From the NCBI GenBank assembly GCA_023382385.1, contig JAHDVH010000002.1, forward strand, positions 136,219-200,218: a DNA stretch of 64,000 bases. The letters are read 5' to 3'. The DNA comes from a bacterium (GTDB lineage: Bacteria > Electryoneota > RPQS01). The notes under the pieces were generated by a model. The model ran no database searches and had not been told where the DNA came from. It saw only the letters and a program-made list of their open reading frames with translations. How positions within the stretch are numbered: the stretch's first letter is position 1; every line of letters begins with the position of its first letter. The position numbers and the translations under genes are program-made. Below are positions 12,317-64,000 of the stretch, piece after piece.

Positions 12317-12341
12317 CGAGGAGTGTAGTGAAAGAGGTGCT

Positions 12342-15300: not shown

Positions 15301-15513
15301 GCGATTCAGATTCGAATTTCCGCGGGTCAGTCACGGGCATAAGAAACTACACCACCTTCGCACATAGAGGGGCTGTGACAACAACACAGACAGGTGGCCA
15401 GTTTTTGGGTACGCATAAATACAAGATAACACCGCAGAGGGGGCGAAGTCAAGGCTGCACCGCGAGATTCTCAAATTTGCATTCCAGCCTCACACAATTC
15501 TAACAGAAGTTTA

Positions 15514-16727: not shown

Positions 16728-16781
16728 GTTATGCTCACAGAACTCTAACAATCAATCGCTACTCTAACAATTCACCAAACA

Positions 16782-17660
16782 ATGGAGCAGAACATGTTTA
16801 CCTTTAGACGCAGTTTCATAGTAACGACAGGCTTAATCCTGCTTTTCGCCGTAGTCGGATGTGGCAAGAAGTCACAGGATGCCGCCTCAAAGACCTCGAT
16901 AGATATCAAGGGTTCTGACACGATGGTTAACCTGATGTCCGCGATGGCAGAGGGTTACATGAAAACACATCCGGGCAAGCAGGTTGCGGTAACGGGCGGA
17001 GGATCAGGAACCGGAATCGCGGCGCTGTTGAACGGCACGACAGATATCTGTGCATCTTCGCGCGAAATGTTGAGCAAAGAAATTGACCTTGCTAAACAGA
17101 AGGGTCTTGAACCACGCGAGTTTGTCATCGGGATGGACGGTTTAGCGGTGTTTGTTCACCCAAGTAATCCTGCTGATAGCCTGTCAATAGAGCAAATCAA
17201 GCAGATCTTCCAAGGTCAGATTACCGACTGGGCTCAAGTTGGCGGAAAGCCGGGGAGCATTGTTGTTCATTCACGCGAAAGCAATTCAGGCACGTACGTC
17301 TATTTCAAAGAGCACGTGCTAGGCAAGGGGGACTTTGCCAACTCGGCCCGTCTGATGACTTCGACGGCTGCGCTGGTGCAGGAGATTTCGACGAATACCG
17401 GTGCAATAGGTTACGGCGGAGAAGCGTATGGCCATGACAGCAAGGTAAAGATGCTGCATGTGCGTAAAGACGCCGAGTCTCCGGCAATCTTTCCGACTGA
17501 AGAGACCGTCCGTAATAAGGCGTATCCGATTGCCCGACCGCTGTTTCTATATACCAATGGCGAACCAAGCGGAGTGTTGCAGGAGTTCATCGAATTCTGT
17601 AACGGTCCGAGTGGACAGGCGATTGTGCGTGAAGTCGGCTACGTTCCACTGAAAGGATAG
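16782..17660 (+). CDS. pstS: phosphate ABC transporter substrate-binding protein PstS
   Basis: Lipobox 'VVGCG'; 'IKGSDTMVNL...VTGGGSGTGIAAL..GTTDI' matches the PstS family. Confidence 0.85.
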   Translation: MEQNMFTFRRSFIVTTGLILLFAVVGCGKKSQDAASKTSIDIKGSDTMVNLMSAMAEGYMKTHPGKQVAVTGGGSGTGIAALLNGTTDICASSREMLSKEIDLAKQKGLEPREFVIGMDGLAVFVHPSNPADSLSIEQIKQIFQGQITDWAQVGGKPGSIVVHSRESNSGTYVYFKEHVLGKGDFANSARLMTSTAALVQEISTNTGAIGYGGEAYGHDSKVKMLHVRKDAESPAIFPTEETVRNKAYPIARPLFLYTNGEPSGVLQEFIEFCNGPSGQAIVREVGYVPLKG

Positions 17661-24606: not shown

Positions 24607-24881
24607 ACAATCACCTCAGGCGGTTTGGGTTTTTGACCCGGGACGGAACAACAAAAAGGGTCTGATGGACAGACTGGAAATTTCAGGTAGCAGATCTTAG
24701 GCGGGACATTCTAATCTACAAATCTAATGCAAAACTTGCCGGATTACAAGAGCTTTGGCGGGGCCGCAAAATTTCTCTTCCCGTTTCAGGCCCGCACAAT
24801 GTTCAAGCGGCCCGCGCATAACTGCACGGGCCGCTTGAGTTTACATTTCAACGGCCATTTCTGACCGAGGTGTCGGAGAGG

Positions 24882-28661: not shown

Positions 28662-28739
28662 TCCTTCATGTTTTGGGGGGTCAGATGTCTTAACCCCGTC
28701 TACGGATGGACAAAACCTGCACGCCTGACGGCGAACCGT

Positions 28740-28960
28740 CAGTACCCTTTACAATATCAAATATAATTGCCAGCAAAATAGGATGTCAACAGGAGATTGG
28801 TTGAAATGACACAATTCTCTCTTTTGCATCTACTATTACAAACTCTTAAAATTCAATCAGATAAATTGAAAGTCATGTTGATTTAATTCTCGGTAAAAAT
28901 CTTAACTTTCGCTATTCTATCTATTTATTATACTTGACCCATTCATTCAACAATCTGCGT
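28740..28960. promoter_or_regulatory. ~220-bp AT-rich (~30% GC) non-coding island upstream of paralog B
   Basis: Strong compositional contrast with the ~60% GC surroundings. It lies between the start of the 24882..28661 gene and the terminus of the signalling cassette. Confidence 0.5.
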
Positions 28961-29062
28961 CAAACTAACGCCTCCTCTACACTGTGAATCATTTTGCGCA
29001 GAATGCAACCGCCTCGATGGTCGTCGAGGCGGATCATCGCGTTTCCCGAAGGTCTTGAAGAG

Positions 29063-29488
29063 TCAGACGTGCGCCGCACTCCGCAAGGCCTGAAAATACG
29101 ATTTCGTGAACAGGCTCAGATCGTTGCCGGCAGGCGAGAAATCCTTGTACAGAATCGCGCTTGCGCCAAGCGATTTGAGTTCGTCCGACACGGACGGTTG
29201 ATCAAAGATCGGCAATCCTGTCACCACCACCACGCCCGCACGCACATTGTCTTCCAGCAGTTTCATCAGCACGCTGCGCCCGCTCATGCGCGGCATTTCG
29301 AGATCGAGGGACACGACGTCCGGCTTCACGGTCTTGACAGCTTCGAGACACTCGTCTCCGTCCGCCACCGACCCTGCAAACTCGAACCCTTCCTCGCGCT
29401 CCACCAGCGCCTGCAACACCCTGCGCACAACCGGATTGTCATCGGCAATCAAAACTCTCACGTTGCGTCCCCCTTTTGGAACGGACAT
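29063..29488 (-). CDS. single-domain CheY-like response regulator receiver protein
   Basis: 'VRVLIADDNPVVRRVL' ... 'PDVVSLDLEMPRMSG' ... 'VVVVTG' (Asp pocket, phospho-acceptor D, T/K motifs). Confidence 0.8.
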   Translation of the reverse strand: MSVPKGGRNVRVLIADDNPVVRRVLQALVEREEGFEFAGSVADGDECLEAVKTVKPDVVSLDLEMPRMSGRSVLMKLLEDNVRAGVVVVTGLPIFDQPSVSDELKSLGASAILYKDFSPAGNDLSLFTKSYFQALRSAAHV

Positions 29489-29494
29489 TTACAA

Positions 29495-30442
29495 TTACTC
29501 CGCAGTTGCCATCTTGATAAACTCACGGGCACGGTCAATATTTTCTTCGATGTCGGTGACAAACGCCGGGATGTCGAGCGACAGGATTGCGGGATTCTCC
29601 TGCGCCACAACTTCCCACGCGGGGTCCTGCGCCAGATGGGCGTTCACACGTTCGCGCAGACTCTTGCTCAGAATAGCACGCGCCAAACTGGACGCCAGAT
29701 GCACGATTGCCGTCAGGACGCTGTGTTCCGGTGCCAGATGCGGCTGATGATGGTAGCGGATGCTTTCCACAATGGAATTCGGCAGCGACCACTTTTCAGC
29801 CAGCCACGCGCCGACTTCCGCATGGTCCGTGCCGAGCACCTTCTGCTCCGCGACGATTGAGGGAAGTCCCTCCTGCTCCGCGATTTTGAAAGCCTGCCCC
29901 AACTCATTGGGGAAGTATTGATGCAGGACAATTTTACCGATGTTATGCAGCAGTCCGGACGTGAACTCGATACCGTGCAGTCGCATTTGCAGCTTCGAGG
30001 CCAGCACGCGCGCGATTTCACCCGTGCCCGCGCTATGTTCCCAGAATGTCTCGCGCGAAAAAGCCGTGCCGCCGTCCAGCACGGGGAAAGCCTTGAACAC
30101 CGAAATCGATGTCACCAGATTTGAGACTTCGCGCATCCCCAGCACGACAAGCGCCATGTTCAGCGATTCGACTCGCCGCGGCATGCCGTAGAACGCGCTG
30201 TTCGAAACGCGCAGGATTTTGCTCGTCATGGACGGATCGTTGCGAATGATCCGCACGATTTCCGACATCCCCGCCAGCGGATCGTTCGCGAGCCGCGAGA
30301 CTTCCATCGCCAGCAGCGGCAGCGTCGGCAAGTCATGCGCATCCCGCAGCCGCTGCATCACAAATTTGCTCCGCGCGGAGTCTCCTGTGATCAGGTCATC
30401 TGCCGTCGGGACGGAAACGAAACTATGCGAAGAGTGATTCAT
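29495..30442 (-). CDS. HDOD-domain signalling protein
   Basis: 'LPTLPLLAMEVSRLANDP...EIVRIIRNDPSMTSKILRVSNSAFYG...LGTDHAEVGAWLAEKWSLP' matches the HDOD (HD-related output domain) pattern. Start set at the internal ATG 30442 (MNHSSH). Confidence 0.8.
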   Translation of the reverse strand: MNHSSHSFVSVPTADDLITGDSARSKFVMQRLRDAHDLPTLPLLAMEVSRLANDPLAGMSEIVRIIRNDPSMTSKILRVSNSAFYGMPRRVESLNMALVVLGMREVSNLVTSISVFKAFPVLDGGTAFSRETFWEHSAGTGEIARVLASKLQMRLHGIEFTSGLLHNIGKIVLHQYFPNELGQAFKIAEQEGLPSIVAEQKVLGTDHAEVGAWLAEKWSLPNSIVESIRYHHQPHLAPEHSVLTAIVHLASSLARAILSKSLRERVNAHLAQDPAWEVVAQENPAILSLDIPAFVTDIEENIDRAREFIKMATAE

Positions 30443-30459
30443 GAAATCTCCAATAATGA

Positions 30460-30924
30460 TCATACATCGAGAGATGTATTTAACTTGTCCAGGTTCAGCC
30501 AGAATACGTCGCCGTAGCGCGTGACGGTGCGCGCGCGGACGGGCAGCGGGGCGACAGACAGCTCCTGATGCAGCCACGCGCGCGGATGAACCGGGATCAC
30601 TTCATCGGCGTGATCAAACGCCAACCCAAGCGGACCGTCCACCGTGTCCACCAGTGCGATAGTCGCAGAGCCGTTACGGTGTGAATTTTCTGTTCCGATG
30701 ACATGACGCATGTCAAGCACCGGCACTCGACCGAACGCCAGTTGAACTTCTCCGGAATAGTCCGGATTCGACGTGGGAATCAGGGGTAATCCTACGAACA
30801 GACCGCGCACTTCGTCCACGGTCAGGCCAACCCGCCAGCCACCTAAGCGGAAGCACACGAGTTTTGTGGGGGGTGCGGCGGGCGCGGCTGCGGGCCGCCG
30901 GCGAATGGGAGGTGCTGAGACCAT
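30460..30924 (-). CDS. CheW-like adaptor domain protein
   Basis: 'LVCFRLGGWRVGLTVDEVRGL' is a CheW-like core; the N-terminus is Pro/Ala-rich. Confidence 0.7.
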   Translation of the reverse strand: MVSAPPIRRRPAAAPAAPPTKLVCFRLGGWRVGLTVDEVRGLFVGLPLIPTSNPDYSGEVQLAFGRVPVLDMRHVIGTENSHRNGSATIALVDTVDGPLGLAFDHADEVIPVHPRAWLHQELSVAPLPVRARTVTRYGDVFWLNLDKLNTSLDV

Positions 30925-38426: not shown

Positions 38427-40171
38427 TCAAGGCGCGTAACATGCGTTACGTCTTACTCTCTTTGCTGCTTTCTTCCATTTCTTTCTCCCAGTCCATCCCA
38501 CCGGATTCGGTGTGGACGTTTGCGTACGATGACGGCGGGGATGAATTCTTTTACGACGCATTGGAATTGGAGGACGGATATCTGCTGTGCGGCAGGGCTG
38601 GCGCAGATGCGTTGTTGCTCAAGATTGGCCGTGACGGGCGTGTTGTTTGGCAGCAGAGGTTTGCCTTCGACCAGCCGCGCAGGTTCACGAAGCTACCATC
38701 AGTCGGCCGCGTCTGGGGAGAAATCACGAATTCAACCGGCACCGGGCAAAACATCTTCAAAGTTCATTTTGATTCTTTGGGCCGGTTTGTTGAAGAGGAA
38801 GTCATTGGCGATGAAGCCGCACCTCTGCGTGTGCTGGCTGAAGCAACGACGACATACTCTGACGATGAAGAGGGTTACTTATTGGTTTACACAAGCCGCG
38901 TGGCGGGTGAAACCGAAAACTCGATCTTCCGGTATGAGTGCTGCGGCACAGTTTCCAACACGCAGCTGACCAGCGGACGCGGTGACCTTGCGCTTGCGGA
39001 AGACAGGCATTTCGATTTTGCCATCTGCGGGAGGACTCGAGAGCAGGATAGCTACAGTCTTGACGGACTTCTTGTTTGGAGACGCTATCCAGAAGATCCG
39101 GCCGACTTGTTTCGACGTGCGGAATACGGCGGTTCGGAAGATGATTGGTTTAACGATCTCACGGGACAAGACGGTTTGACACCCTATGTTTTGTGCGGCG
39201 GCAGTCGCAGTGAATCAAACGGATCATCGGACTTGTGGGTAATGGGCGTATCGGACACGGGAGCCGTGCGCTGGTCGCGCCACTTCGGCGGTCTTTCCTA
39301 TGAAGACGGCGTGGAAATTGTCAGCTCTGACGATGACGGTTTTATCATCGCGGGGAATTTTTCATCTGAAGATATCGACTTCGAGCAATCGGATTTCTGG
39401 CTGCTGAAGGTTGATGAGAACGGCGACAGCGTGTGGTCGGTGCTGGCGGGCGGAGAAGAAGCGGATCGTTGCGAGGGGATGATCCAGACGGAGCACGGAT
39501 TTCTGCTGTTCGGCGCGTCGCAATCATTTGCCGTGCCGGGGTGGGACGCCTGCGCGATGCTGTTGGCCTATGTGCCGGACCTTGCTGCGGCGCCATCGAG
39601 TTTGAATTTCGGACCGGTGCAAGTCGGAGACAGCGCGACGCGGGTGCTGCATCTTATCAACACGGGTTCGAACACGCTGACAGTGACGGATATACAAGGG
39701 ACGGATGCCTATCACGCGAATTTCAACGGTCCCGCGACCATTGCACTGGGCGAAACACTGAGCGTCACGACGGTATTTACACCGCCGAGCACGGGGAATC
39801 ACGTGGACACACTACGCATATTCAGCGACGCGATTTCCGGAGTGAAGATTGTGCGTTGTCTGGGCGCGGGACTTGTAGCGCATGCCGACGACGCCGGCTT
39901 GCTGCCGCGAGCGTTTGCCTTGCATCCTCCCTACCCGAATCCGTTCAACCCCGGCACGAGTATCTCGTTTGACTTGCCGCGCGATTCGGAGATGACAATG
40001 GAAATTTACGATGTGTCAGGCCGGTTGGTCCGAACGTTGTTCGCAGGGTCGCTCCCGGCCGGCAGCCATCGCATGGTGTTTGAGGCGGACGCGTTGGCGA
40101 CAGGACTGTATTTCGCAGCACTGCGTGCGGGCGAGTATCACGGTGTGCAAAAGCTGATGCTGGTGAAGTGA
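38423..40171 (+). CDS. secreted beta-propeller-like protein with T9SS C-terminal sorting domain
   Basis: Signal peptide 'MIKARNMRYVLLSLLLSSISFSQS'. C-terminal 'PYPNPFNPGTSISFDL...MEIYDVSGRLV..GLYFAAL...KLMLVK'. Start overlaps the dapB stop (ATGA). Confidence 0.75.
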   Translation: MIKARNMRYVLLSLLLSSISFSQSIPPDSVWTFAYDDGGDEFFYDALELEDGYLLCGRAGADALLLKIGRDGRVVWQQRFAFDQPRRFTKLPSVGRVWGEITNSTGTGQNIFKVHFDSLGRFVEEEVIGDEAAPLRVLAEATTTYSDDEEGYLLVYTSRVAGETENSIFRYECCGTVSNTQLTSGRGDLALAEDRHFDFAICGRTREQDSYSLDGLLVWRRYPEDPADLFRRAEYGGSEDDWFNDLTGQDGLTPYVLCGGSRSESNGSSDLWVMGVSDTGAVRWSRHFGGLSYEDGVEIVSSDDDGFIIAGNFSSEDIDFEQSDFWLLKVDENGDSVWSVLAGGEEADRCEGMIQTEHGFLLFGASQSFAVPGWDACAMLLAYVPDLAAAPSSLNFGPVQVGDSATRVLHLINTGSNTLTVTDIQGTDAYHANFNGPATIALGETLSVTTVFTPPSTGNHVDTLRIFSDAISGVKIVRCLGAGLVAHADDAGLLPRAFALHPPYPNPFNPGTSISFDLPRDSEMTMEIYDVSGRLVRTLFAGSLPAGSHRMVFEADALATGLYFAALRAGEYHGVQKLMLVK

Positions 40172-43574: not shown

Positions 43575-44727
43575 ATGAAGTCAGAAGAATTGTCACAGTT
43601 GATTGGTGAGCATCGCTCGAAGTTAGAGACGCTGCGGAGGTCGCTTTGACTACGGTCGAAGGCTTTCCGAAATAGAAAAACTCGAAACGCTGTCCGGCGG
43701 CGCGGGATTCTGGGACGACCAGGAACGCGCGCAGAAAGTGCTCAGGCAGATTTCCGAACACAAATCGTGGGTGGAAGCGTTCAAGAAGGTCGAAGCCGCG
43801 CTCGGTGACCTCGACGCGTTGCGCGAGTTAGCGGAGGAGTCACCCGACGCATTTGGTGCAAACGATTTGGACAGCGAAGCGCAGAAGTTCGTCGTTCTGT
43901 TCGATGAACTCGAAACCCGCGCGATGCTGAAGGATCCAAACGACTCCAAGAACGCGATTATCCATATTCATCCCGGTGCGGGCGGCACAGAGTCGGCGGA
44001 TTGGGCCTTAATGCTCTACAGAATGTATCTGCGTTGGCTGGAAGCACGCGGCTGGAAGGTGGATGTTCTGGATTTTGAGCCTGCGGAAGAAGCGGGGATC
44101 AAATCCGCAGTCTTGGAAGTGCAGGGTGAGTTTGCCTACGGTTATTGCAAAGCGGAGACGGGTGTGCACCGGCTCGTGCGAATTTCTCCGTTCGATTCCA
44201 ACGCGCGGCGTCACACGTCATTTGCCAGTGTGTTTGTTTATCCTGAAGTGGAGGAGGTTCCGGAGATAGAAATTCGCCCGGAGGACTTACGGATAGACAC
44301 GTTTCGCGCATCGGGAGCGGGCGGACAGCACGTAAACCGGACAGAGTCGGCGATTCGCATCACGCACGTTCCCACGAACATCGTCGTGACGTGCCAGACG
44401 GACCGCTCGCAACACCGCAACCGCGACTCGGCGATGAAAGTGTTGCTGGCGCGGCTGTATCAACGCTATCTGGACGAAGAGAAAGCCAAGAACGCAAACA
44501 TTGAGAATCAGAAAACCGACATTGCGTGGGGGCATCAGATTCGCTCCTACGTGTTTCAACCCTATCAGATGGTAAAAGATCACCGGACCGGCGTGGAAAC
44601 TTCGAATATTCAAAAGGTGATGGACGGAGACCTGGACGAGTTTGTGCGCGCCTTCCTGCTGCTTGGAGCACAGGGCAAGTTCGCGCGCTCGCGCGCACAG
44701 GCGAGTAGTGAAGACGAAGAATTGTAG
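43575..44727 (+). CDS. prfB: peptide chain release factor 2, requiring a +1 programmed ribosomal frameshift at 43644..43650
   Basis: Frame 0: MKSEELSQLIGEHRSKLETLRRSL-UGA. The site CTT TGA C (43644-43650) is preceded by the SD-like GGAGG (43636-43640). The +1 frame continues 'DYGRRLSEIEKLETLSGGAGFWDD...' into the 43738 ORF, which contains SPF ('RISPFD') and GGQ ('SGAGGQHVNR'). Confidence 0.9.
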
Positions 44728-44759: not shown

Positions 44760-46817
44760 ATGAAGCGAATTGCGGTATTGTTGTTGATGCTGACCTTGTT
44801 TGTTGCGGTCGCCTTGGCCAAACAGAAGTCCAATACGGGCGTTGAAGAGCCGTACTACGAGTACGTGCAGAATCAAGCTCTGGTGGGGTTCAGGCAGGAG
44901 GCAACGCAAGCGAAGATTCAGGAAATCGTGTCTCGCGCCGGCGGAACGATTGAACAGTACTCAGACTTGCTTGATTTCTACCTGATCGAAGTTGCCGACG
45001 TGAAGTCTGCGGTTCAGTTCTTCCGTTCGCAAAGTGAGGTGTTGTGGGCAAACTACAATTACATCGCCCGCGCACATTGGGTGCCGAACGATCAGTTTTA
45101 CTCGTTTCAGTGGCACTATCCGTTGATCGGGATGGAGCAGGCCTGGGACATTTCGCGCGGCAATCCGAACGTAGTGGTCGCCGTGCTGGACCAGGGATAC
45201 CAGTTTGATCATGAGGACTGGACGGGAATTCAGACAACCGGCCCGTACGATTTCATCGGCAACGACAACAACCCGTCAGAACCGAATCTGGAAGACTCAC
45301 ACGGGATGCATGTCGGCGGGACTATCTTTGCGCGCACGAACAACACGACGGGAGTTGCAGGCATCGCGCCGCTTTGCACGCTGATGCCGATCCGCGTGTT
45401 GGATAATGAAGGATCCGGTTCGCTGGCGGCGATTGCCAACGGATTTGCATGGGCTGCACAGCAGGGCGCAGATGTGCTGAACGCGTCGCTGGGATTCAGC
45501 ATTCAGAACAACCAGCCGCCGCAGGACCCGGGACAGCCGCTGACCGGTGCTATTCAGCAGTGCGCCAACGCGAATGTGATCATGGCTGTTTCCTCGGGCA
45601 ACGATAACGCTGATTACGTTTCGTATCCTGCGGCTTACCCCGCCTGCATCGCGGTCGGCGCCACAGCCTATAACAACGCGATCGCGCCCTATTCCAACAG
45701 GGGCACGGCGTTGGACGTCACAGCGCCCGGCGGAAACACCGGCGAGGATTTGAATCAGGATGGTTACATTGACGGCGTGCTCTCTACCGTGCGTGCGGCC
45801 TCGCAAGGCGGCGATTACTACACGTTCTGGCAAGGCACATCGATGGCGTCACCGCATGTTGCAGGATTGGCGGCGTTGATTTTGGCAAACGGCTGTCCGC
45901 CGGATCAAGTGCGCAATGCGATCGAATCCACGTGTGTTGACCTCGGCGCACCCGGCTGGGACGTTGTATTCGGTTACGGACGCATCAACGCGCATGCTGC
46001 GTTGCAATACAACTGTCAGGGCGGCGGCGGTGAAACGACGCTCTTCAGTGGACCGATGGACAGCGCCCAAGAAGGCTGGACGGTGGAAGAGGACGGCGCC
46101 GATGGCGTCGGCTGGCGATTCCTGAATTCGGGCAATCCCGACTGCGGTAATCAGCCGCATAGCGGACAGAATGGGCTGTGGCACGACGACGAGCAAGGAG
46201 TCGGCATGCAGGACGATTGGCTGTTCACTCCGCAAATCGCAATTCCCGCAAACGCAACGCAGGTCACTCTCAGTTTCTGGCAGCGCAATTGCTACGTGCC
46301 GGGCTACTATGTTCTGCACGCGCTGTATTATTCGACGAACGGTCAGCAATTCACGCAGGTGGCCGAGTTCAACGCAAACGTTCCGGCGTGGGAGCAGATC
46401 AATGTGAACGCGACATCGCTGGCCGGAAACAACGTGTATTTCGCATGGCGTTATCGCGGCGATTACGCAACCGAGTGGTTTCTGGACGACGTAGTGGTCA
46501 CGGCGCAAATCGGCACGGGCGTGTCGCGCGATGCGGATATCACGATTCCCGAACAGTTTACGCTGGGTAATCCGTATCCGAATCCGTTCAACAACATGGT
46601 GCAAATTCCGTTTGAGCTTGCGACTCCGCAGGAGATCACGCTTGCCGTCTATAACGTGCTCGGTCAGCGCGTCGCCACGCTCGTGAATCACGAGAAGCTT
46701 GAGGCCGGGTCGCATCGCATGACTTGGAATGGTGAAAGCGCGGCGAGCGGTCTATTCCTCGTGCAGCTGCAAAGTGGAAGCAAAGTCGCAACGCAGAAGA
46801 TTCTGCTGGTGAAGTAG
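44760..46817 (+). CDS. subtilisin-like serine peptidase (S8) with MAM-like domain and T9SS C-terminal sorting domain
   Basis: Signal peptide. Triad context 'VVAVLDQGY', 'DSHGMHVGGT', 'GTSMASPHVAGLAAL'. C-terminal 'NPYPNPFNNMVQIPFEL..LAVYNVLGQRV..GLFLVQL..KILLVK'. Confidence 0.9.
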   Translation: MKRIAVLLLMLTLFVAVALAKQKSNTGVEEPYYEYVQNQALVGFRQEATQAKIQEIVSRAGGTIEQYSDLLDFYLIEVADVKSAVQFFRSQSEVLWANYNYIARAHWVPNDQFYSFQWHYPLIGMEQAWDISRGNPNVVVAVLDQGYQFDHEDWTGIQTTGPYDFIGNDNNPSEPNLEDSHGMHVGGTIFARTNNTTGVAGIAPLCTLMPIRVLDNEGSGSLAAIANGFAWAAQQGADVLNASLGFSIQNNQPPQDPGQPLTGAIQQCANANVIMAVSSGNDNADYVSYPAAYPACIAVGATAYNNAIAPYSNRGTALDVTAPGGNTGEDLNQDGYIDGVLSTVRAASQGGDYYTFWQGTSMASPHVAGLAALILANGCPPDQVRNAIESTCVDLGAPGWDVVFGYGRINAHAALQYNCQGGGGETTLFSGPMDSAQEGWTVEEDGADGVGWRFLNSGNPDCGNQPHSGQNGLWHDDEQGVGMQDDWLFTPQIAIPANATQVTLSFWQRNCYVPGYYVLHALYYSTNGQQFTQVAEFNANVPAWEQINVNATSLAGNNVYFAWRYRGDYATEWFLDDVVVTAQIGTGVSRDADITIPEQFTLGNPYPNPFNNMVQIPFELATPQEITLAVYNVLGQRVATLVNHEKLEAGSHRMTWNGESAASGLFLVQLQSGSKVATQKILLVK

Positions 46818-55852: not shown

Positions 55853-56332
55853 ATGTTACTTTCACGTCCCACTACCTACGCCATTCGTGCGGTGCTCTGC
55901 CTTGCCAGACACAATTCCGATCAGCCGTTGCTCGCGCCATCGATCGCCCAGGCGGAGCAACTGCCCTCATCCTTTCTCTCGAAGCTGCTGCGTTCGCTCT
56001 CCGAGGCGGGCATCCTTCAGTCGTCGCGCGGACCGGGCGGCGGCTTCAAGCTGGCGAAGCCGCTCGATCAAATCAGATTGCGGGATATTTCCGTGCTGTT
56101 TGACGGCGTGTCGCTGGCGAACGAGTGTCTGCTCGGTTATGGCAAGTGTGAAGATACGACACCTTGCCCCGTGCACAAACTCTGGGGACCGCGCAAACAG
56201 CAGGTCGAGGACTTTCTGAATACCACGACGATCGCGGACCTATTGGCGCTCGATACGCGCAGACTGGCTCCGATTCTGGAAGAACCCAAACGCGGCAGGC
56301 GACGCATCAAACCGCGACCCGGCGAAGCGTAG
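55853..56332 (+). CDS. Rrf2-family (IscR-like) transcriptional regulator
   Basis: wHTH 'SIAQAEQLPSSFLSKLLRSL' and the three-Cys cluster 'CLLGYGKCEDTTPCPVH'. Confidence 0.85.
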   Translation: MLLSRPTTYAIRAVLCLARHNSDQPLLAPSIAQAEQLPSSFLSKLLRSLSEAGILQSSRGPGGGFKLAKPLDQIRLRDISVLFDGVSLANECLLGYGKCEDTTPCPVHKLWGPRKQQVEDFLNTTTIADLLALDTRRLAPILEEPKRGRRRIKPRPGEA

Positions 56333-56421: not shown

Positions 56422-56958
56422 CTATCTGCCGTCGGCAATGAAGAAGAGGTAGTATACATTGGCAACGATAGCGAGCTGTCCGGCCACCGAGGCGATATCG
56501 GCGACAAGCTGCCAGCCGGAGCCGTGAACGACGATCGTGTCTTCGGGTTTGAGGTCAGGTATCAACCGCTTTTCACCGGTCTTGGTATACTTGCGCACGT
56601 TAACTGTGATAACTTCTTGGGATCCGGTATCCTCGCTGCGCACAACCTTGACGTCCGAGAGTCGCGAGCGCGGGCTTGGTCCGCCGGCCAGCGACATCAG
56701 CGAAATCAAATCGGTCTTAGCGGGCACGTAATACTGCCCGGGCCGTCCGACCCGTCCCCAGATATTGACACGGATCAGCAATTCGTTCGACTCGTTCAGA
56801 TAGTACTTGCTGCCTTCACCCACGCGCCGCACCTGCGGGATCTTGTAGGGAACGGCCCCAACCTCAACACTCGACTGCGCGAGCAGAGGGGCAGTCACAC
56901 AGACGAGCAGCAGCGCGGAAATAACAGCGCGCACGTAGAAATTGTTAACCAGCCTCAT
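56422..56958 (-). CDS. polysaccharide export (Wza-like Poly_export/SLBB domain) periplasmic protein
   Basis: Signal peptide 'MRLVNNFYVRAVISALLLVCVTAPLLAQS'. 'YKIPQ...LIRVNIWGRVGRPGQYYVP..TDLISLMSLAGGP' is an SLBB fold pattern. Confidence 0.7.
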   Translation of the reverse strand: MRLVNNFYVRAVISALLLVCVTAPLLAQSSVEVGAVPYKIPQVRRVGEGSKYYLNESNELLIRVNIWGRVGRPGQYYVPAKTDLISLMSLAGGPSPRSRLSDVKVVRSEDTGSQEVITVNVRKYTKTGEKRLIPDLKPEDTIVVHGSGWQLVADIASVAGQLAIVANVYYLFFIADGR

Positions 56959-56974
56959 TGGGCCTCCAGTTTCC

Positions 56975-57808
56975 TCACTCCTGATAGACAAAAGTCGTAT
57001 AGACAGATGAACCAGCCAGCGCGACATCGTGCGTGTCGGAAGCGGCGAGGCTCACGGCGTTCAGTTGCCAAACATACGTGCAGTCATTCACCATTGGACC
57101 CGTAGCACCGCCCGAGCCAAGCCCGACGGAGTTCTGCTGGCCGTAGAGAATCACCTGATGGTCCCAGACGAGCGAATCCCGACCATACCACTGCGAATAG
57201 ACACGCAGCTTGTAATAGGACAGGAACGTGCTCACACCTCCGATGGGATAACTCCAGCTTAGCCGGTAGTCATCCGCCGCGAATCGTGAAACCGTCAGAT
57301 TGTACGGGTTCCACATTAACCGGTAATAAACGGAGTCGCTCCAGCCACTTCGATTGCCGGCTGTGTCGTAGGCCAGCACCTGCCACCAATATCCGCGCAT
57401 CGTTCCCTGATCATTTGGCGCAAGCGCGTTCGACGGATTGCCGAACTGATCAAACCCGCGATCAACCCACGACAGAATTTCCGTGTCCGGAATCTCCACG
57501 CCCACTGCAACGTCCGCAACGGTGATGGCATCGTTCGAACCTGTGTGTTCATGCCAGCGCCGGACCCGATAACCGACCACATCCGGCTCCGTATTGCGGT
57601 ACCATTCGAGCCTCACCCAGTAATTGCTTTCACTCGGAGTCGGCTCTGCGCGGATGCCTGACTGCGGATAGCTGGCGTCATCCGAACGCGGCACCAGCAC
57701 CGGGTTCTGCGGTGGAATGTTATCAGTGCTCTCTGTGTCATCGCCGCAGCCAACGAACACGGCAAAAACACATACGAGAATTGACAATGTCAGGACTTTC
57801 ATAGGCAA
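56975..57808 (-). CDS. hypothetical lipoprotein with FN3-like repeats
   Basis: 'MKVLTLSILVCVFAVFVGCGDD' lipobox; Trp/Tyr-rich beta-rich body. Confidence 0.5.
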   Translation of the reverse strand: MPMKVLTLSILVCVFAVFVGCGDDTESTDNIPPQNPVLVPRSDDASYPQSGIRAEPTPSESNYWVRLEWYRNTEPDVVGYRVRRWHEHTGSNDAITVADVAVGVEIPDTEILSWVDRGFDQFGNPSNALAPNDQGTMRGYWWQVLAYDTAGNRSGWSDSVYYRLMWNPYNLTVSRFAADDYRLSWSYPIGGVSTFLSYYKLRVYSQWYGRDSLVWDHQVILYGQQNSVGLGSGGATGPMVNDCTYVWQLNAVSLAASDTHDVALAGSSVYTTFVYQE

Positions 57809-57809
57809 C

Positions 57810-58868
57810 TCACTTCAGCTTGATGGATAAGCTGACTCGGTGCGTGGTGCCCAGGTCGCGCGCATAGTAGGCGTAATCGGCGGTCACGCGCCACAGAGCG
57901 ATTCCCGCACCGGCGGACCATTCGTCGTGCCACAGTCCACCGCGCAGAAACAGCACATTTTCGAACGCATACTCGATTCCCGTGTGACGGCGGCGCTCGT
58001 AGCGCTTTTCCGTTTCATAAGCCAGCGTCAGGCGGCTGTTGCGGCCCGGCATTTTCTGTTCGAGCGAAATTGAGCTGTAGATATTTCGCGGCACAGCATC
58101 CTTCACTCCTTCACCCCAATCCACTTCTGTCCGCGTCGCGTCCTTGACAACGATACCGTAACTAAGCCGTGCCTTCCACGCTTCGTAAACGATCTCATCC
58201 ATCGGGAAACGCACCTGCGCGCCAGCGTCCACGCCGATTCCCGTGCCGGAAGCCGTACCCAGTTTTTGATTGATGAGCTTGAGATTGACGCCGATCGGCA
58301 CTTCGACGGGCATGGTGAAGTACGACCAGCCCCAGTCAATATTAAACTGATTGTATTTGGCGAACGTAAAGAAAAGAGCGGATTCGCTGTCCGAAAACAG
58401 TCCGCGCGGCGCGGCACCCGTTGCCAGCAGATACTCCTGCACCGAGTTGACGTAAATCGTATCGCCGTTCACAATGACGTAACGCAAGGACGGCGGGCGC
58501 GAGAGAATGTCGGCCACAACTTGATCGTAATTGGGATGCTGTTCAATATCCGGCACGCCCAACCGCACATAATTCACGGCAAAGACCGAACCCGTCACGG
58601 GCAGCGTGATGCCTGTGGACGAGAAGTTCGCCAATCCATCCCACAAATCCGCGTACATTCCGGTAGCCTGAATGCCGGAAACAAAGCCCATTCCCGCGGG
58701 GTTCCAATAAAAGCTCGACCCGTCGTAGGTATGCGAGGCCATCGCTCCGCCCATGGCAATTCCGCGCGCGCCTACACCCAGTTCGAGAAACTCTCCGGCG
58801 TATTTCGCGGCAATTGCAGGAAGCGATAGAAGCAGCAATAGTGTGATGCTGACAAAGAATCGTTTCAT
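57810..58868 (-). CDS. porV: PorV/PorQ-like FadL-type outer-membrane beta-barrel (T9SS shuttle protein)
   Basis: Signal peptide. The N-terminal 'AGEFLELGVGARGIAMGGAMAS...YWNPAGM' resembles the PorV family N-terminus. Sits immediately downstream of the porU-like gene with an ATGA overlap. Confidence 0.65.
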   Translation of the reverse strand: MKRFFVSITLLLLLSLPAIAAKYAGEFLELGVGARGIAMGGAMASHTYDGSSFYWNPAGMGFVSGIQATGMYADLWDGLANFSSTGITLPVTGSVFAVNYVRLGVPDIEQHPNYDQVVADILSRPPSLRYVIVNGDTIYVNSVQEYLLATGAAPRGLFSDSESALFFTFAKYNQFNIDWGWSYFTMPVEVPIGVNLKLINQKLGTASGTGIGVDAGAQVRFPMDEIVYEAWKARLSYGIVVKDATRTEVDWGEGVKDAVPRNIYSSISLEQKMPGRNSRLTLAYETEKRYERRRHTGIEYAFENVLFLRGGLWHDEWSAGAGIALWRVTADYAYYARDLGTTHRVSLSIKLK

Positions 58869-61800
58869 TTGCGCACCTTTGCCAGCTTGACGATGGTCTC
58901 GATCTCTTCCTTGCCTTGCTTGGCGATGATCTTCGCGAAGTAGACACCGTTTGCCACTTCCTCGCCCTTGTCGTCGCGGCCGTCCCATTGCAGCGTCCGG
59001 TAGTTGACCGTCGCGCGTTCAATTTCGCGCAATGTGCGGATATGTCGTCCGGACACGGTGTAGATCTTGGCTTCCGTGAATTGATCCGTGACTCCCGTCA
59101 ACACATAAGCAATGGTTGTGTTTTGCGCAAACGGGTTGGGATAGTTAATCGCCCATTCAAAACCGAAGTCCCGCCGCACGTCAAACTGCGCGTCGTAGGT
59201 CGACGTATTGCCGTGATTGTCTGTGGCGATCACCCGCAGCACATGCGTTCCGGGTTCAAGGTCGGGTTCGATCATCGCACTCAGCGTGTTCGCGGTCCAC
59301 GACTCGTCGTTCCATGTGATCAAACTTGGTGAAATTGTATCACCGTCGAGAATCAAATGAAATGCCGTGTCGTTTCGCATCACGCCAGCCGGATCACGGA
59401 AGGTCGTAAAGATCTGTGGACGGCTGGGAACAATGGCTCCCTGCGTGTAGCGCAGGCCGCCGATACTGACTTCGATGGTCGGTCCCTGTGCGTCAAAGAC
59501 GCGAAACAGAGCCAACTCTCCAAGCGTGGCAACTTCCCCTGACACGCGCAGGTGCCACGTCACCAATGTGTCAAGCGAAGGATTTCCCGGATTCAGTATG
59601 CGCGTCGAGTCGGTTGGAATTCGCGTGACCGTCGTATTGCGCGCGCGCACCCACTGTTTGAGCTTCGGGTCTCGCGCATATATCGCATAGTTTGCCGACG
59701 GAACCTGACTGCGCAGCGTGTCGCGGCCATCAAGCGATATGGTCACCATCGCGCGGAAACTGTCGGACAGCGAACCGAGCGAATCGTCGAACAACGCCGA
59801 AAAGACGCCGTGGGTGCTTTGCGTGAACGGCCTGCGCAGACCCTTACTCGAGAGTTCCGCCTGCTGAGCTTGTGTTAGCAGCACGGGCTGCGAATAACCT
59901 ATGGCTGCGCTGTCCCGCGGCAGAATTCCCGGGAAAACGCGCACTTCGAGCGTATCATTGCCGGTCACGGACCAGTATTTGTGCGGCCCGACGTTTAACG
60001 GTCTGGTCAGGAAGGTTCCCAGCTGCCGCGTGGCCGGATAGTAGCTCGGCATGTTGATTTCGAACGTGCGCGAGTTGTTGCCTTCGCGGGTTTCGCGAAT
60101 CAGATTGTCCGGATCGATGGTGATGTTGACGTTCCAGAGTCCGGGACGGAATTCCGTGGGAATCCACGCTTCGCGCTCATATTCACCGAACGACAGGTTG
60201 GGCAGCAGATGATTCACCGTAAACGAGTCGACGCGCACGGTGATGGTGTTCCCGCCGGACGTGTAGGTTGAATCACGCGTCGCGGTCAAACGAATCGTGA
60301 CATTGTCCAACTGCGCGGTGCTGCCCGTGCGCTGTACGGAAAACGGCTGATAATAGTAAGGCCGGCGGCCTCCGCGCTGTGCGGGCGACGCCGAAATCAC
60401 GAACGAGAGATTAAAATCGGGAGAGCGTTCCAGCGGCAGACTGAAATAATCTGATTCGAACTCCGTGCCGCCGACAGGCGTCACAAAGAACTTCACACGA
60501 TAGGTCGCGCCTTCAAAGTCATACGGGCCGATGTCTCTCACAGTTGTGTATACGCTCGGCGCGGTCTCCACCATACTCATCGTGTCCAGTCTGACTGGCC
60601 CCTGCGCCGGAGTGTAGAGTCCACGGAATCTCACGCTCTGAATTGCGTCCAGATGCAGGATAAGCGACTGGACACGGAACGGTTCACCGCTGAACGCGAC
60701 CGAATCCGGAACGGCTTCGATATCGAGAAACTGCACGGTGGAGAGACTATCGGCAAGATAAATTGGGAATCTGCCGATGGCGTTGCGCCTGAGCGCAGGA
60801 TTAGTCACATAGACCACCACATTGCCACGCGGAGTGACAAAACGATTCAGCGGTACGGCATCCGATGTACAGATTTGAGTCGTGTAGAACTGCGGGTCTA
60901 TCTGATTCTGATTGAAGGCCGGACTAAACGTGGTCACCAGCACTGGTGAGCCGAAGTTCGACGGCCGGCGCCGGTCGCCGTTGTAGGGCAGCACATAGGC
61001 GTAAGTCACGGTGGACGAATTCTGCTGCCACGGCAGGGTCATGATAACACGCAGGGAGTCCGGATTTCCCAGGCTGTCCCGCGATCTGACGATGTTGGAT
61101 TCAGCAAAAATGCGCGGCTCGAACTCTTCCTGAGGAATCTGCAGTTTTACACCCGGGTCACCGAGCAGATTCATCATCATCATCATCGAGTAATTCGAAC
61201 TCCAGCCGAGCGGAGTACTGCTCGCGCTCCACCAGCGCGCTTTGTTCAGCGCGGCGGCTTCGCCCATCGTGTAGCCCGGCTGCTGGAGGAAGAAGTCGTA
61301 AAGCCTGCGCTGCATGGATTGCCCGGCGATAGCCCATCCGACTCCTGAAGAACTGTAGAATCCAATCGCGCCGACAATGTCGTTGTTGTTATTGCGCGCA
61401 AACAGGAAGGCTTCGCCGAGTACCGAAGCCTGGCTGCGGTCATCGAACGCGCCGACATAGCAGGTGAAGTTCGTGATAAAGGGGAACGACTCGCGGTTGT
61501 TCAACAGGCGCACACCGCCGACGTTAATCAGCGAACTTCCCGACCACACACCACCGCCGCCGTGTCCGTTGTAATTTGCTGCCACACAACCGTCGCGCAA
61601 GGCGTCCCGCAGCGCAATCGGCCCCTGTCCGGCGGGAATGCTGTCGAGATACACGCGGGTCACATTCACCGTGGTGTTTTCCACCATGGCCTTCACCGCA
61701 GGTTCGGAAAACGCGGCGACGAAATCGAGCGGAGGAGGACCGGAGTCGTAGTAGTCCGCAACCATCAGCACGTTGCTCGGGGTGCGGTTCTCAAAGTCCG

Positions 61801-64000
61801 GGTCGGTCTCGTAGATGAACACCTTTCGGACGTAAGTGCCCAGTTCCTGCGGCGTCCGGCAGGAGATTCGCCCGACGGCGATGTCCGGTATGATGTCCCA
61901 GTGCGGTCCCGAGATGCAGCCCATGATATAGTCGGCGGAGGAGACTCCGAAGGCATAGGTCGGAATAGCAAAGGTGGGAATCTGATTTCCCGGAATGTTG
62001 TTCTCTCGCTGTTCCAGCACGGCGTCGCCGACCAGACAGAGATGCGTGGGCCGCACACTCCAGTGGTCGTAGGCGTACATCATAAAGTCGCGCAAAGCGT
62101 AGGGCGTTATCAGTCCGCCGGAGAACTGTTCATAGACTTCAGACAGCGGAATCGTTAACACAGAGTTGTTGAAGTTGATACGCCGCAGACTGTCCAGCAG
62201 CCGCACAGACGTATCGGCATAGAACGGGTCGTAGACGACCATCACATATTCCGCGCCGGGATGATTACGCAAGTCCACTTGCACGGAGTCCGGCACCACC
62301 AGAAATGGCTGCGCGATGTAATTTTCGCCGAACACCAGCACATCACGCGGCCCGTCGGACACAAGCGGGAATCTCACTGCCCAGCTTGCGGACTCATCCG
62401 CGGGAGTGACGCGGCGCGTTTCCAGATTGGTCAGGCGACTGTGTCCGAGCTTCCAGACTTGAATATTCTGTGACGGGAAGCCGCGAATATCGTACGCGGC
62501 CGTGTCTCCGACGTTGCGATTGAAGTCGAAGCGAAATTCGCCGTTGCGCGAGCGCATGTCACGCTCATACTCAACCTCGAACCAGTTGACCAGAATCTTG
62601 TCGGCGGTACCGGCAATTTGATTTCCCGGGACGTGAACGGTAATCACGTTGTTGCCGTTCACAAGGTTTGAGGTCAGGATGTTGTTTGTCCCCGCTGTCC
62701 GGTCGGTTTCAAAGATAATCGGAGCTTGGCCTCCCCATTGCGGTGCGGGGTCGCTCGCGTGCTGCCGTCCGGCGGTTAAGCCGTTGTCCGACAGGCCGTT
62801 CAAGGAGACACGGACGTAATGGTTATACCCCGGAGTCGAGCTGAATCCGGTCAGACAGGCGCGCACAACCACCGGTTCAAAACTGAAGGGAGCGTTGGGA
62901 TTGGGAAATGGCAGATAGGCTTCGAAATCGCGTGACGAGAGTGCGTCAATGCGCTCGCCCCAGAACCAGTGGTCCTGCAACAGATTATGCGGGCCTTTGC
63001 GATAGAGGTCCGCTCCGAGCACGCTCGAGAGCTGGCTCAGTCGGTCAAAATAGCGATCGCGTTCGAAGTGCAGCTTCACACGCACGCTGCGCACCGGCTG
63101 GAGATTCCAGACGGACTGCCACGTGCCGTTGACTTCGCCCATGCGCAGCCCGGGCCGCCCGTCGCCCCAAAAGAGCTGATAGCAATTTTCGCTGGAGAAC
63201 GGGTCCTGCCAGAGCGATGGAATACTTTCTACGTACGTACGCTCATTGCGTTCGCCGAAGAAGTCGATGTGGTCAAACTCATCGAAACGTCCGTCTTCCT
63301 GACCTTCGACAACGATAGGAATCTCGCGTCCCTTATTCCAGATATGCAGGTCCCACGGGGTAATCTGGTCAATCGGCACACCCATCGTCCGCAGATACTC
63401 CCCGGTCAGCCGGATGATACTGGTTTCGCGGACGTAGATGCGCCAACGATTGACGTTGAAAATCGGGAAGTCGTCATCCAAAGCGAAGCGTTCGCGCTCT
63501 TCGCGGACGTCCGGCCGACGAGTGGGCAGGGCAGTATCTGCGAACTTCCCCAGCATTTTCCGCAGAGTGTGGTTCTCATTGTAGCTGTCCGGCAATCGCA
63601 TTTCGTTATTTGACGAAATAGGCAATGAGACTTGCAGCCTTGCTCTCGTGAGAACCCTGCCAACTCCCGTTAATGTATTGATTTGCACGGGATTGACGTG
63701 TAGTGACATGAGCCGATGACCGCGGTAAATCCCGGCCTCTGTGACTTCTGCCACACGTTCAGGACGCGTGCCGGAGACTTTTTCGGTCCGGCGCATCCGT
63801 TCCCGCATAGACAAGCCCGCCAGCGGATCAACCTTCGCCCAGAAGGTGTCGGGACTCGACGAGCTGGGGCGTTCATCCACAATGAAGTCCTCAGGCATCG
63901 GCAAGCATTCACCGAGATTCAGCGGTTCATACTCCGCTTCCACCAGCGTGACCGTCACCTGACCTGGCAATGCCTCGAAAAGCTCGGCCGCCCTCGGCAG
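58865..64000 (-). CDS. porU: 5'-partial PorU-like gingipain-family (C25) T9SS C-terminal signal peptidase, >1700 aa, with its own CTD
   Basis: C25-like catalytic region 'ANYNGHGGGGVWSG...FITNFTCYVGAFDD'. C-terminal 'INYPNPFAQNTTIAYVL...GVYFAKIIA..KLAKVRK'. The frame is open to the window end, so the true start lies beyond 64000. Confidence 0.8.
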   Translation of the reverse strand: MPRAAELFEALPGQVTVTLVEAEYEPLNLGECLPMPEDFIVDERPSSSSPDTFWAKVDPLAGLSMRERMRRTEKVSGTRPERVAEVTEAGIYRGHRLMSLHVNPVQINTLTGVGRVLTRARLQVSLPISSNNEMRLPDSYNENHTLRKMLGKFADTALPTRRPDVREERERFALDDDFPIFNVNRWRIYVRETSIIRLTGEYLRTMGVPIDQITPWDLHIWNKGREIPIVVEGQEDGRFDEFDHIDFFGERNERTYVESIPSLWQDPFSSENCYQLFWGDGRPGLRMGEVNGTWQSVWNLQPVRSVRVKLHFERDRYFDRLSQLSSVLGADLYRKGPHNLLQDHWFWGERIDALSSRDFEAYLPFPNPNAPFSFEPVVVRACLTGFSSTPGYNHYVRVSLNGLSDNGLTAGRQHASDPAPQWGGQAPIIFETDRTAGTNNILTSNLVNGNNVITVHVPGNQIAGTADKILVNWFEVEYERDMRSRNGEFRFDFNRNVGDTAAYDIRGFPSQNIQVWKLGHSRLTNLETRRVTPADESASWAVRFPLVSDGPRDVLVFGENYIAQPFLVVPDSVQVDLRNHPGAEYVMVVYDPFYADTSVRLLDSLRRINFNNSVLTIPLSEVYEQFSGGLITPYALRDFMMYAYDHWSVRPTHLCLVGDAVLEQRENNIPGNQIPTFAIPTYAFGVSSADYIMGCISGPHWDIIPDIAVGRISCRTPQELGTYVRKVFIYETDPDFENRTPSNVLMVADYYDSGPPPLDFVAAFSEPAVKAMVENTTVNVTRVYLDSIPAGQGPIALRDALRDGCVAANYNGHGGGGVWSGSSLINVGGVRLLNNRESFPFITNFTCYVGAFDDRSQASVLGEAFLFARNNNNDIVGAIGFYSSSGVGWAIAGQSMQRRLYDFFLQQPGYTMGEAAALNKARWWSASSTPLGWSSNYSMMMMMNLLGDPGVKLQIPQEEFEPRIFAESNIVRSRDSLGNPDSLRVIMTLPWQQNSSTVTYAYVLPYNGDRRRPSNFGSPVLVTTFSPAFNQNQIDPQFYTTQICTSDAVPLNRFVTPRGNVVVYVTNPALRRNAIGRFPIYLADSLSTVQFLDIEAVPDSVAFSGEPFRVQSLILHLDAIQSVRFRGLYTPAQGPVRLDTMSMVETAPSVYTTVRDIGPYDFEGATYRVKFFVTPVGGTEFESDYFSLPLERSPDFNLSFVISASPAQRGGRRPYYYQPFSVQRTGSTAQLDNVTIRLTATRDSTYTSGGNTITVRVDSFTVNHLLPNLSFGEYEREAWIPTEFRPGLWNVNITIDPDNLIRETREGNNSRTFEINMPSYYPATRQLGTFLTRPLNVGPHKYWSVTGNDTLEVRVFPGILPRDSAAIGYSQPVLLTQAQQAELSSKGLRRPFTQSTHGVFSALFDDSLGSLSDSFRAMVTISLDGRDTLRSQVPSANYAIYARDPKLKQWVRARNTTVTRIPTDSTRILNPGNPSLDTLVTWHLRVSGEVATLGELALFRVFDAQGPTIEVSIGGLRYTQGAIVPSRPQIFTTFRDPAGVMRNDTAFHLILDGDTISPSLITWNDESWTANTLSAMIEPDLEPGTHVLRVIATDNHGNTSTYDAQFDVRRDFGFEWAINYPNPFAQNTTIAYVLTGVTDQFTEAKIYTVSGRHIRTLREIERATVNYRTLQWDGRDDKGEEVANGVYFAKIIAKQGKEEIETIVKLAKVRK

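Follow-up and report, generated by a model that had tools for sequence, protein, structure and literature searches.

In the secretion system of type IX (T9SS), PorU is a surface sortase that strips the C-terminal domains (CTDs) from cargo proteins and joins the cargo to anionic lipopolysaccharide (A-LPS); PorU is held by the outer-membrane barrel PorV, and PorZ by PorQ (PMC5562754; PMC8545088). Both PorU and PorZ keep their CTDs bound to these barrels, and it was therefore suggested that cognate PorV-like barrels protect or dock specific CTD proteins (PMC10202324). Second PorU/PorV pairs have already been noticed by database curators (the PorU2 and PorV2 models, NF052324 and NF052325). A literature search found no publication on PorU2 or PorV2, and nothing relevant on PorU paralogues, on the four-gene module described here or on the T9SS of Calditrichota or Caldithrix. 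The module is an operon at positions 56422–64000, on the minus strand, of a 64000-nucleotide stretch of DNA (GenBank accession number JAHDVH010000002.1, positions 136219–200218; assembly GCA_023382385.1) from a bacterium of the GTDB lineage Electryoneota, RPQS01. This whole stretch is referred to as the window. The first two genes encode a C25-family protein related to PorU (the C25 protein) and a barrel related to PorV.

The module and the porU-porV pair have in common a C25 fold with an intact catalytic dyad, PorU-type N-terminal domains, a penultimate immunoglobulin (Ig)-like domain followed by a type A CTD, a Sec signal peptide, and an adjacent gene for a barrel that is probably of the PorV/PorQ family. 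However, the module differs in a post-catalytic insertion of ~375 amino acids (aa), in scores below the cut-offs of the curated models, in the lipoprotein and SLBB protein genes that lie downstream, and in the presence of a true porU-porV pair alongside it in the closest genome. From the PorU architecture, the dyad, the PorU-like CTD and the private, translationally coupled barrel we infer a second surface-tethered complex. As the proteins score under the PorU, PorU2, PorV, PorQ and PorV2 cut-offs, and a canonical pair is found at a separate locus (L004) in the close relative, the module is distinct from the known equivalogs. The reading favoured here, at rather better than even confidence, is that the operon would be a self-contained paralogue of the T9SS attachment machinery, a second, specialised complex for surface processing or attachment, and that it is probably not the primary porU-porV pair.

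Two other described pairs invite comparison. Like PorZ-PorQ, the module would consist of a CTD-bearing surface protein kept by a dedicated PorV-like barrel, and the module barrels score slightly better on the PorQ model (33–45 bits) than on the PorV model (18–31 bits), both far under the cut-offs. However, the partner in the module is a C25 peptidase and not a β-propeller protein that binds A-LPS, and similarity to the PorZ model is limited to the CTD. Like PorU2/PorV2, the module provides a second PorU-like and PorV-like pair, and PorV2 is the best equivalog-type match of the barrel. However, the window proteins and every relative tested fall far below the cut-offs of those two models, and the C25 protein matches the PorU model better than the PorU2 model.

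The operon, its PorU-like peptidase and the adjacent barrel

The module accounts for the whole of the minus strand between 56422 and 64000, with the genes transcribed in the order C25, barrel, lipoprotein and SLBB. Its features are as follows.

58865–64000, minus strand: C25 gene; open reading frame (ORF) open at the window edge, residues 113–1823 of the 1823-aa called product
61142–62245, minus strand: Peptidase_C25 catalytic domain, window aa 586–953 (PF01364, E = 7e-59, profile positions 2–374 of 374)
61562–61564, minus strand: catalytic His codon, motif NYNGHGGGG, His813 in the window and His925 in the full-length protein; aligns with the GHG His of PorU and RgpB
61460–61462, minus strand: catalytic Cys codon, motif FTCYVG, Cys847 in the window and Cys959 in the full-length protein; aligns with the Cys column of PorU and RgpB
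59501–60979, minus strand: region behind the catalytic domain peculiar to the long group, residues 1120–1612 of the full-length protein, net insertion ~375 aa
58874–59143, minus strand: T9SS type A CTD of the C25 protein, PorU subtype (WDGRDDKGEEVANGVYF); TIGR04183 26.9 bits for the window part and 28.6 bits for the full length (cut-off 23)
57810–58868, minus strand: probable outer-membrane barrel and PorV/PorQ-family paralogue of 352 aa, with the signal peptide MKRFFVSITLLLLLSLPAIAA
56975–57802, minus strand: module-specific lipoprotein, 275 aa, lipobox FVG-C19 at 57746–57748
56422–56958, minus strand: small SLBB protein, 178 aa, with a signal peptide, one SLBB domain and a C-terminal helix

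The stop codon of the C25 gene and the start codon of the barrel gene overlap as ATGA (58865–58868; read directly as ...CGC AAA TGA against ATG AAA CGA), as an earlier note on this DNA had reported. The spacing between successive genes is -4, 7 and 16 nt, and a GGAGG is found inside the 16-nt gap ahead of the SLBB gene. As a divergent pgi gene lies upstream (beyond the window) and a convergent Rrf2 regulator gene downstream (55853–56332), the four genes form one operon. Sigma-70-type promoter and intrinsic terminator patterns were looked for at its 3' end, and none was found.

The C25 frame has no stop codon within the last 30 nt of the window. Retrieval of the upstream sequence, which the earlier note had proposed as a way to the true start, yielded a complete locus (L001; coordinates 10001–15472), the product of which, P0001, is 1823 aa as called and 100% identical to the window translation, which is short of 112 codons. 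P0001 begins with MHGAEGWLANFSFIALAMASVKSKKIQIILLTCLAVLVWQGFTYAQ, and a 72%-identical orthologue, P0002, begins at the equivalent of M18. The true start is therefore probably M18 (MASVKSKK..., followed by a Sec signal peptide), giving a product of ~1806 aa.

The best solved relative of the C25 protein is PorU of Porphyromonas gingivalis (6za2; residues 604–959 against 423–791), with the gingipain RgpB second (1cvr and 4ief; an alignment of ~200 residues only, E = 1e-8 to 1e-9). The catalytic His and Cys are invariant in 52 of the 52 aligned homologues, and both codons were checked, so that the dyad, on which the earlier note had made its proposal depend, is present. On the PorU equivalog model (NF033707), the C25 protein scored 258 bits against a cut-off of 420, with only positions 8–753 of 1095 matched and nothing but the CTD recognizable in positions 754–1095, and on the PorU2 model (NF052324) it scored 170 bits against a cut-off of 450. 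The long relatives tested scored 247–335 bits on the PorU model and 194–250 bits on the PorU2 model, in all cases below the cut-offs. A Pfam scan of the 683-aa region N-terminal to the catalytic domain found no domain.

The C25 protein had been described as ~500 aa longer than the Porphyromonas PorU, with a long N-terminal extension. The excess over the 1156-aa P. gingivalis PorU (6za2 chain) is ~650 aa, of which ~275 aa lie ahead of the catalytic domain and ~385 aa behind it, and a figure of ~500 aa applies to the canonical PorU of the same phylum. Profile-profile alignment (hhalign) of the long group with canonical PorUs of ~1300 aa extended over the whole length (probability 100, E = 1e-132, 1229 columns). 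P0001 residues 58–1120, comprising the PorU-type N-terminal domains and the catalytic domain, correspond to residues 25–984 of the canonical protein (P0039) with ~120 extra residues scattered among them, and residues 1612–1822, comprising the Ig-like domain and the CTD, correspond to residues 1099–1320. As residues 1120–1612 are matched only in patches by P0039 residues 985–1098 (local hhalign block table), the main extra length is a net insertion of ~375 aa after the catalytic domain, and an N-terminal extension makes up a minor share. Within the insertion, Pfam recognizes nothing besides a CARDB-like domain (60065–60280), which scored 23.4 bits when scanned as a separate segment (cut-off 22.7) and 21.5 bits within the full sequence.

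The CTD of the C25 protein was compared with those of three other window proteins, listed here as putative T9SS cargo.

1–3782, plus strand: CTD-bearing protein, truncated at the window start, Kre9_KNH Ig-like repeats; Por_Secre_tail 35.5 bits
38369–40171, plus strand: CTD-bearing protein, ASH/HYDIN-type Ig domain; Por_Secre_tail 31.1 bits
44760–46817, plus strand: CTD-bearing subtilase; Peptidase_S8 E = 2e-51, Por_Secre_tail 37.3 bits

All three exceed the gathering cut-off of Por_Secre_tail (PF18962, 27 bits) and were also matched by a profile of the window CTDs, and with the C25 protein, which scored 16.9 bits on Por_Secre_tail and passes on TIGR04183, they make up the four CTD-bearing proteins that the earlier note had counted. 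The cargo CTDs (3528–3779, 39917–40168 and 46560–46814, plus strand) are mutually alike (66–69 bits pairwise). The C25 CTD stands closer to sortase-type CTDs, at 56–59 bits with those of its distant orthologues and 45 bits with that of canonical PorU, than to the cargo CTDs, at 27–36 bits. The motif WDGxDxxGxxVANGVYF is common to the CTDs of the C25 protein, its distant orthologues and canonical PorU and is missing from the cargo CTDs of the window. A CTD was not detected in a second subtilase (9713–12253, plus strand), which has an InhA-like MAM domain and a prodomain of the Fervidolysin type.

With the dyad intact, a Sec signal peptide and a CTD of the PorU subtype, the C25 protein is a putative PorU-type cysteine peptidase or transpeptidase. 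It could instead be an ordinary degradative protease, secreted by the T9SS and shown on the surface by a dedicated barrel in the manner of a gingipain, with no role on other CTDs. Gingipains belong to the C25 family, RgpB has a C25 core with His and Cys at the same positions as well as a T9SS CTD, the window encodes other secreted CTD proteases, and the long post-catalytic region with its CARDB/Ig-like domain resembles adhesin or display modules. However, the N- and C-terminal architecture of the C25 protein is PorU-type, unlike that of RgpB. The homology with PorU covers the PorU-specific N-terminal domains and the C-terminal Ig-like domain and CTD, the latter of the PorU subtype, whereas the gingipain matches are confined to the ~200 residues noted above, and the module is situated amid housekeeping genes in two genomic contexts, which suits a core envelope function. 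A purely degradative role is considered unlikely.

The barrel scored 93.5 bits on the PorV2 model (NF052325; cut-off 325), 80.1 bits on the PorV/PorQ family model (NF033709; cut-off 90), 33.4 bits on the PorQ model and 18.5 bits on the PorV model (NF033710; cut-off 250). Orthologues scored 86.7 and 92.5 bits on NF033709, the higher value, from locus L008, passing the cut-off, and 74–88 bits on the PorV2 model. Neither PorV (PF19572) nor Toluene_X (PF03349) nor any other Pfam family was matched by the barrel at E ≤ 1, while in the same run the canonical PorV of the related genome scored 87.5 bits on PF19572. A search of the PDB with a profile of 16 barrel orthologues gave PorV of Flavobacterium johnsoniae (6h3i_F, E = 1.2e-6) as the sole match, and no FadL chain was found at E ≤ 1. 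A generic FadL transporter, the outcome that in the earlier note would have counted against PorV kinship, was therefore rejected, there being no match to Toluene_X or to a FadL structure. From these comparisons we conclude that the barrel probably represents a divergent branch of the PorV/PorQ superfamily, and is neither a PorV orthologue nor a FadL transporter.

Relatives of the module and the canonical pair of the closest genome

Among the genomes in the collections, the nearest is a Calditrichaeota metagenome-assembled genome (MAG; accession number GCA_020637395.1), which carries the same operon with the same flanking genes at locus L002. Identity with the window proteins is 72% for the C25 protein, 88% for the barrel, 80% for the lipoprotein and 81% for the SLBB protein. 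On the same contig, 0.9 Mb from L002, locus L004 encodes a 1320-aa PorU that scored 643 bits on the PorU model (positions 6–1095), and the gene that follows it encodes a PorV scoring 286 bits on NF033709 and 87.5 bits on Pfam PorV.

The presence of this pair bears directly on whether the operon in the window is itself the canonical porU-porV pair, its divergence being due to the distance of the lineage from Bacteroidota and its downstream genes being lineage-specific additions. PorU is indeed the best NCBIfam match of the C25 protein, the dyad and a CTD are present, a PorV/PorQ-family barrel is adjacent, and no second porU or porV is found elsewhere in the 64-kb window. However, the relative in which the module is 72–88% identical and has the same flanks also has a full-length porU that passes the cut-off, with an adjacent Pfam-positive porV. 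Since a separate, full-scoring pair is present in so close a relative, lineage divergence does not explain the low scores of the module, and an origin of the low PorU score in phylum-level divergence alone was rejected, as 643 bits are reached by a canonical PorU from within the phylum. The NCBI pipeline likewise names the L004 protein PorU, whereas it names the C25 protein only "T9SS type A sorting domain-containing protein". It is thus very improbable that the operon is the canonical pair. The earlier note had taken the first two genes for the conserved porU-porV pair that cleaves and shuttles CTD cargo. The homology to PorU and to PorV/PorQ (E = 1e-132 and E = 1.2e-6, respectively) bears out the relationship, but the sub-cut-off scores and L004 speak against the role of canonical cargo-processing pair.

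A scan with an SLBB alignment, using one genome per species, identified 25 loci in Calditrichota/Calditrichia, KSB1 and other MAGs. The order C25, barrel, lipoprotein, SLBB was found wherever the DNA of a Calditrichota-type locus reached far enough upstream. This order is kept in two clades, clade A (L009–L018) and clade B (L005, L008 and L021–L033), and in two further lineages, L034 and L036. Between clades A and B, identity is 26–28% for the C25 proteins, ~36% for the barrels and 35–40% for the SLBB proteins, and the lipoproteins are related at the profile level only (hhalign probability 99, E = 9e-18). The flanking genes also differ by clade: one has pgi and Rrf2 at the borders of the module, the other cdaA, folP and proS. 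As the four genes keep their order across Calditrichota lineages even where identity has fallen to 26%, the module is a distinct and conserved paralogous one. The lipoprotein and SLBB genes, which had been set down in the earlier note as not standard T9SS components, are indeed not standard, yet they are its most diagnostic part, being present in every module locus for which the upstream DNA sufficed.

The SLBB gene of Calditrichia-type modules is followed by a fifth gene, gene x (L005, coordinates 15873–17030; L008, 15756–16910; L020, 2247–3413). Its ~385-aa product has a signal peptide, a body that resembles a barrel and, at the C terminus, a highly charged coiled coil (EEELRRLKREREQAEKELEELRQLLEEE). 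Outside the coiled coil neither Pfam nor the PDB gave a match, and the gene is absent from the window. Lone PorU-like C25 proteins were also found, namely P0025 (L035; coordinates 7001–12724) and P0030 (L006, a member of Melioribacteraceae; coordinates 8001–12734), where barrel, lipoprotein and SLBB genes are not adjacent. Both of these genes lie directly after glycosyltransferase or sugar-modifying genes, and this neighbourhood suggests that PorU-like enzymes and glycan synthesis may be more broadly connected. Five of the MAGs carrying the module (L011, L012, L015, L017 and L018; binchicken and similar assemblies) are titled "uncultured Alphaproteobacteria bacterium". Their module proteins are 36–82% identical to those of the window (C25 36–61%, SLBB 53–82%), with the nearest named relatives in Calditrichota, and these labels look wrong.

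The window is a stretch of ordinary chromosome, with genes for lysyl-tRNA synthetase, alanine racemase, prfB, a sigma-54 activator and ThiF. No plasmid was matched by the barrel gene in a megablast search. The prfB gene (43576–44727, plus strand) includes the classic programmed +1 frameshift signal CTT TGA C at 43644–43650 with a GGAGG-like element ahead of it, a short ORF0 starting at the ATG at 43576, and the main PCRF/RF-1 ORF at 43738–44727. The ORF at 12342–13784 (minus strand) encodes a ThiS, ThiF and rhodanese fusion, that is, a sulfur-carrier activation fusion. Two large adjacent ORFs (21004–24606 and 24882–28661, minus strand; 1200 and 1259 aa), with no Pfam match at E ≤ 1e-3, lie downstream of an HDOD/HD-domain gene (29495–30577). 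The three genes (21004–30577) were considered as a mirror of the HDOD-porU context of L004, and this was rejected as the ORFs have neither a C25 domain nor similarity to PorU.

The lipoprotein and the SLBB protein

The lipobox Cys (Cys19, in FVGC) is kept in all of the lipoprotein orthologues extracted. Matches to the fibronectin type III (FN3) domain model (PF00041; cut-off 25) are weak, at 14.8 bits for the window protein and 24.0 bits for the L005 orthologue, while another orthologue, P0056, scored 31.4 bits on the related Ig_Rha78A_N model (cut-off 27.4). The segment YWWQVLAYDTAGNRS, the usual hallmark of bacterial FN3 domains, was the only part of the lipoprotein to match giant multi-repeat proteins in an exhaustive profile search. 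Full-length matches were limited to a few dozen small proteins, with 13 clusters at E ≤ 1e-30 among 1.84 billion representatives. An AlphaFold2 (AF2) model built with 19 homologues (58–80% identity) was all-β and unreliable (predicted local distance difference test score, pLDDT, 47.5), and was too poor for a fold search. The FN3 assignment therefore draws on the hidden Markov model matches and the hallmark motif, and the FN3- or Ig-like character that had been proposed for this lipoprotein is accordingly weak but consistent. The BamG-BamH pair of the Bacteroidota β-barrel assembly machinery (BAM) complex, in which a 14-stranded FadL/PorV-like barrel grips a surface lipoprotein by its extracellular loops (PMC12578637), is a possible analogy for the barrel and the FN3-like lipoprotein, though the module has no BamA context.

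The SLBB protein scored 28.7 bits on Pfam SLBB (PF10531; cut-off 27). Its AF2 model (pLDDT 83.5) comprises a signal peptide, a disordered stretch at residues 28–39, a single β-grasp domain at residues 52–146 and a helix at residues 148–177. This 30-residue C-terminal helix (56428–56517), hydrophobic to amphipathic, is conserved in 38 aligned homologues. In a Foldseek search the top matches of the model were WzaB, a class-3 OPX (outer-membrane polysaccharide export) protein of Myxococcus xanthus (9n9a, E = 3.7e-6), and the class-1 OPX protein Wza (2j58 and 9r68), with E values of 4e-6 to 1e-5 over the set and 121–123 aligned columns with Wza. The module protein has in common with these the SLBB β-grasp and, as in Wza, a long C-terminal helix, and the location of its gene beside that for an outer-membrane barrel recalls class-3 OPX proteins. 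However, it differs from Wza and WzaB in having a single SLBB domain and no Poly_export domain, in not being a lipoprotein, and in not being encoded in a polysaccharide-synthesis locus. The OPX family is defined by a Poly_export domain N-terminal to the SLBB domain or domains (PMC9603273). In Pfam and NCBIfam scans the domains seen were SLBB and SLBB_2 only, with weak matches to the EpsE, EpsY and PEP-CTERM exporter models, no Poly_export (PF02563) and no match to Pfam Wza_C. "Wza-like", the term used in the earlier note, is therefore a fair description of the predicted fold, but membership of the OPX family does not follow. With a mean hydropathy of 1.64–1.88 over 19 residues, the C-terminal helix could be a membrane helix like that of Wza or equally a stop-transfer anchor in the inner membrane, and it is presumably more hydrophobic than the helix of Wza.

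That the operon is primarily a device for export of a polysaccharide or glycolipid through the SLBB protein and the barrel, with the C25 protein an accessory, is very doubtful: the SLBB model is nearest to WzaB and Wza with the weak exporter matches given above, class-3 OPX proteins act with β-barrel porins (PMC9603273; PMC12819527) and the SLBB gene pairs with the barrel-like gene x in KSB1, but the SLBB protein is without a Poly_export domain, no Wzx, Wzy, Wzc or glycosyltransferase genes are found in the operon or conserved beside it, the barrel is probably of the PorV/PorQ family and not a PgaA-like or GfcD-like porin, and no element is better conserved than the 5.4-kb C25 gene, which is also transcribed first.

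Proposed function and significance

If the operon does direct a second surface complex, the C25 protein would be exported by the T9SS with its CTD retained, and would be tethered on the surface by the cognate barrel encoded by the translationally coupled gene downstream, as PorU is on PorV and PorZ on PorQ. The FN3-like lipoprotein and the membrane-anchored SLBB protein would complete the complex. Working alongside the canonical PorU-PorV, it could process a subset of CTD cargo, or join that cargo to another acceptor on the surface. The acceptor would probably be a glycan, which is the most plausible candidate because the SLBB fold is nearest to Wza and WzaB and the lone relatives of the C25 protein are encoded beside glycosyltransferase genes. 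Specificity may be set by the long post-catalytic insertion together with the two accessory proteins.

Several observations weigh against this reading. Coexistence with a canonical pair was observed in one close relative, and for the window organism itself the search covered the 64-kb window, which, as noted, holds no second porU or porV. Membership of the PorV/PorQ family is borderline for the barrel by the curated cut-off (80 against 90 bits). The SLBB protein, besides being without Poly_export, would be placed far from a surface sortase if its helix anchors it in the inner membrane. Finally, in KSB1 the SLBB gene and gene x are found together without the C25, barrel and lipoprotein genes, and the SLBB protein may thus not be dedicated to the sortase.

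A bolder version of the same proposal is an autonomous second pathway for anchoring T9SS cargo. Here an SLBB oligomer, formed via the helix, would serve as a minimal Wza-like conduit or be docked under the barrel, and would hand an exported glycan to the PorU-like transpeptidase, which would ligate a dedicated subset of CTD proteins to it, with the lipoprotein as a scaffold or substrate adaptor. As it stands this version is rather improbable, but if it is true, the function that PorZ and PorQ have with A-LPS in Porphyromonas would here fall to the SLBB protein and the lipoprotein, which would carry it out by other means.

The module also has a bearing on annotation. In NCBI records the barrel and the lipoprotein are each labelled "hypothetical protein" and the SLBB gene product "SLBB domain-containing" or "polysaccharide biosynthesis/export family" protein, so that three of the four genes have hypothetical or generic names. 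Calling the C25 gene "PorU" would mislabel genomes that have a true orthologue too.

A-LPS is not known outside Bacteroidota, and the SLBB partner offers a testable lead on the acceptor to which cargo may be attached there. Models of T9SS attachment have been drawn almost wholly from Porphyromonas and Flavobacterium, in which a single PorU, held by PorV, handles every type A cargo protein. If a second such pair is indeed conserved, has two partners of its own and exists beside a canonical pair, as in the closest sequenced relative, some phyla of the Fibrobacterota-Chlorobiota-Bacteroidota (FCB) group would sort their surface proteins by at least two routes of processing or anchoring.

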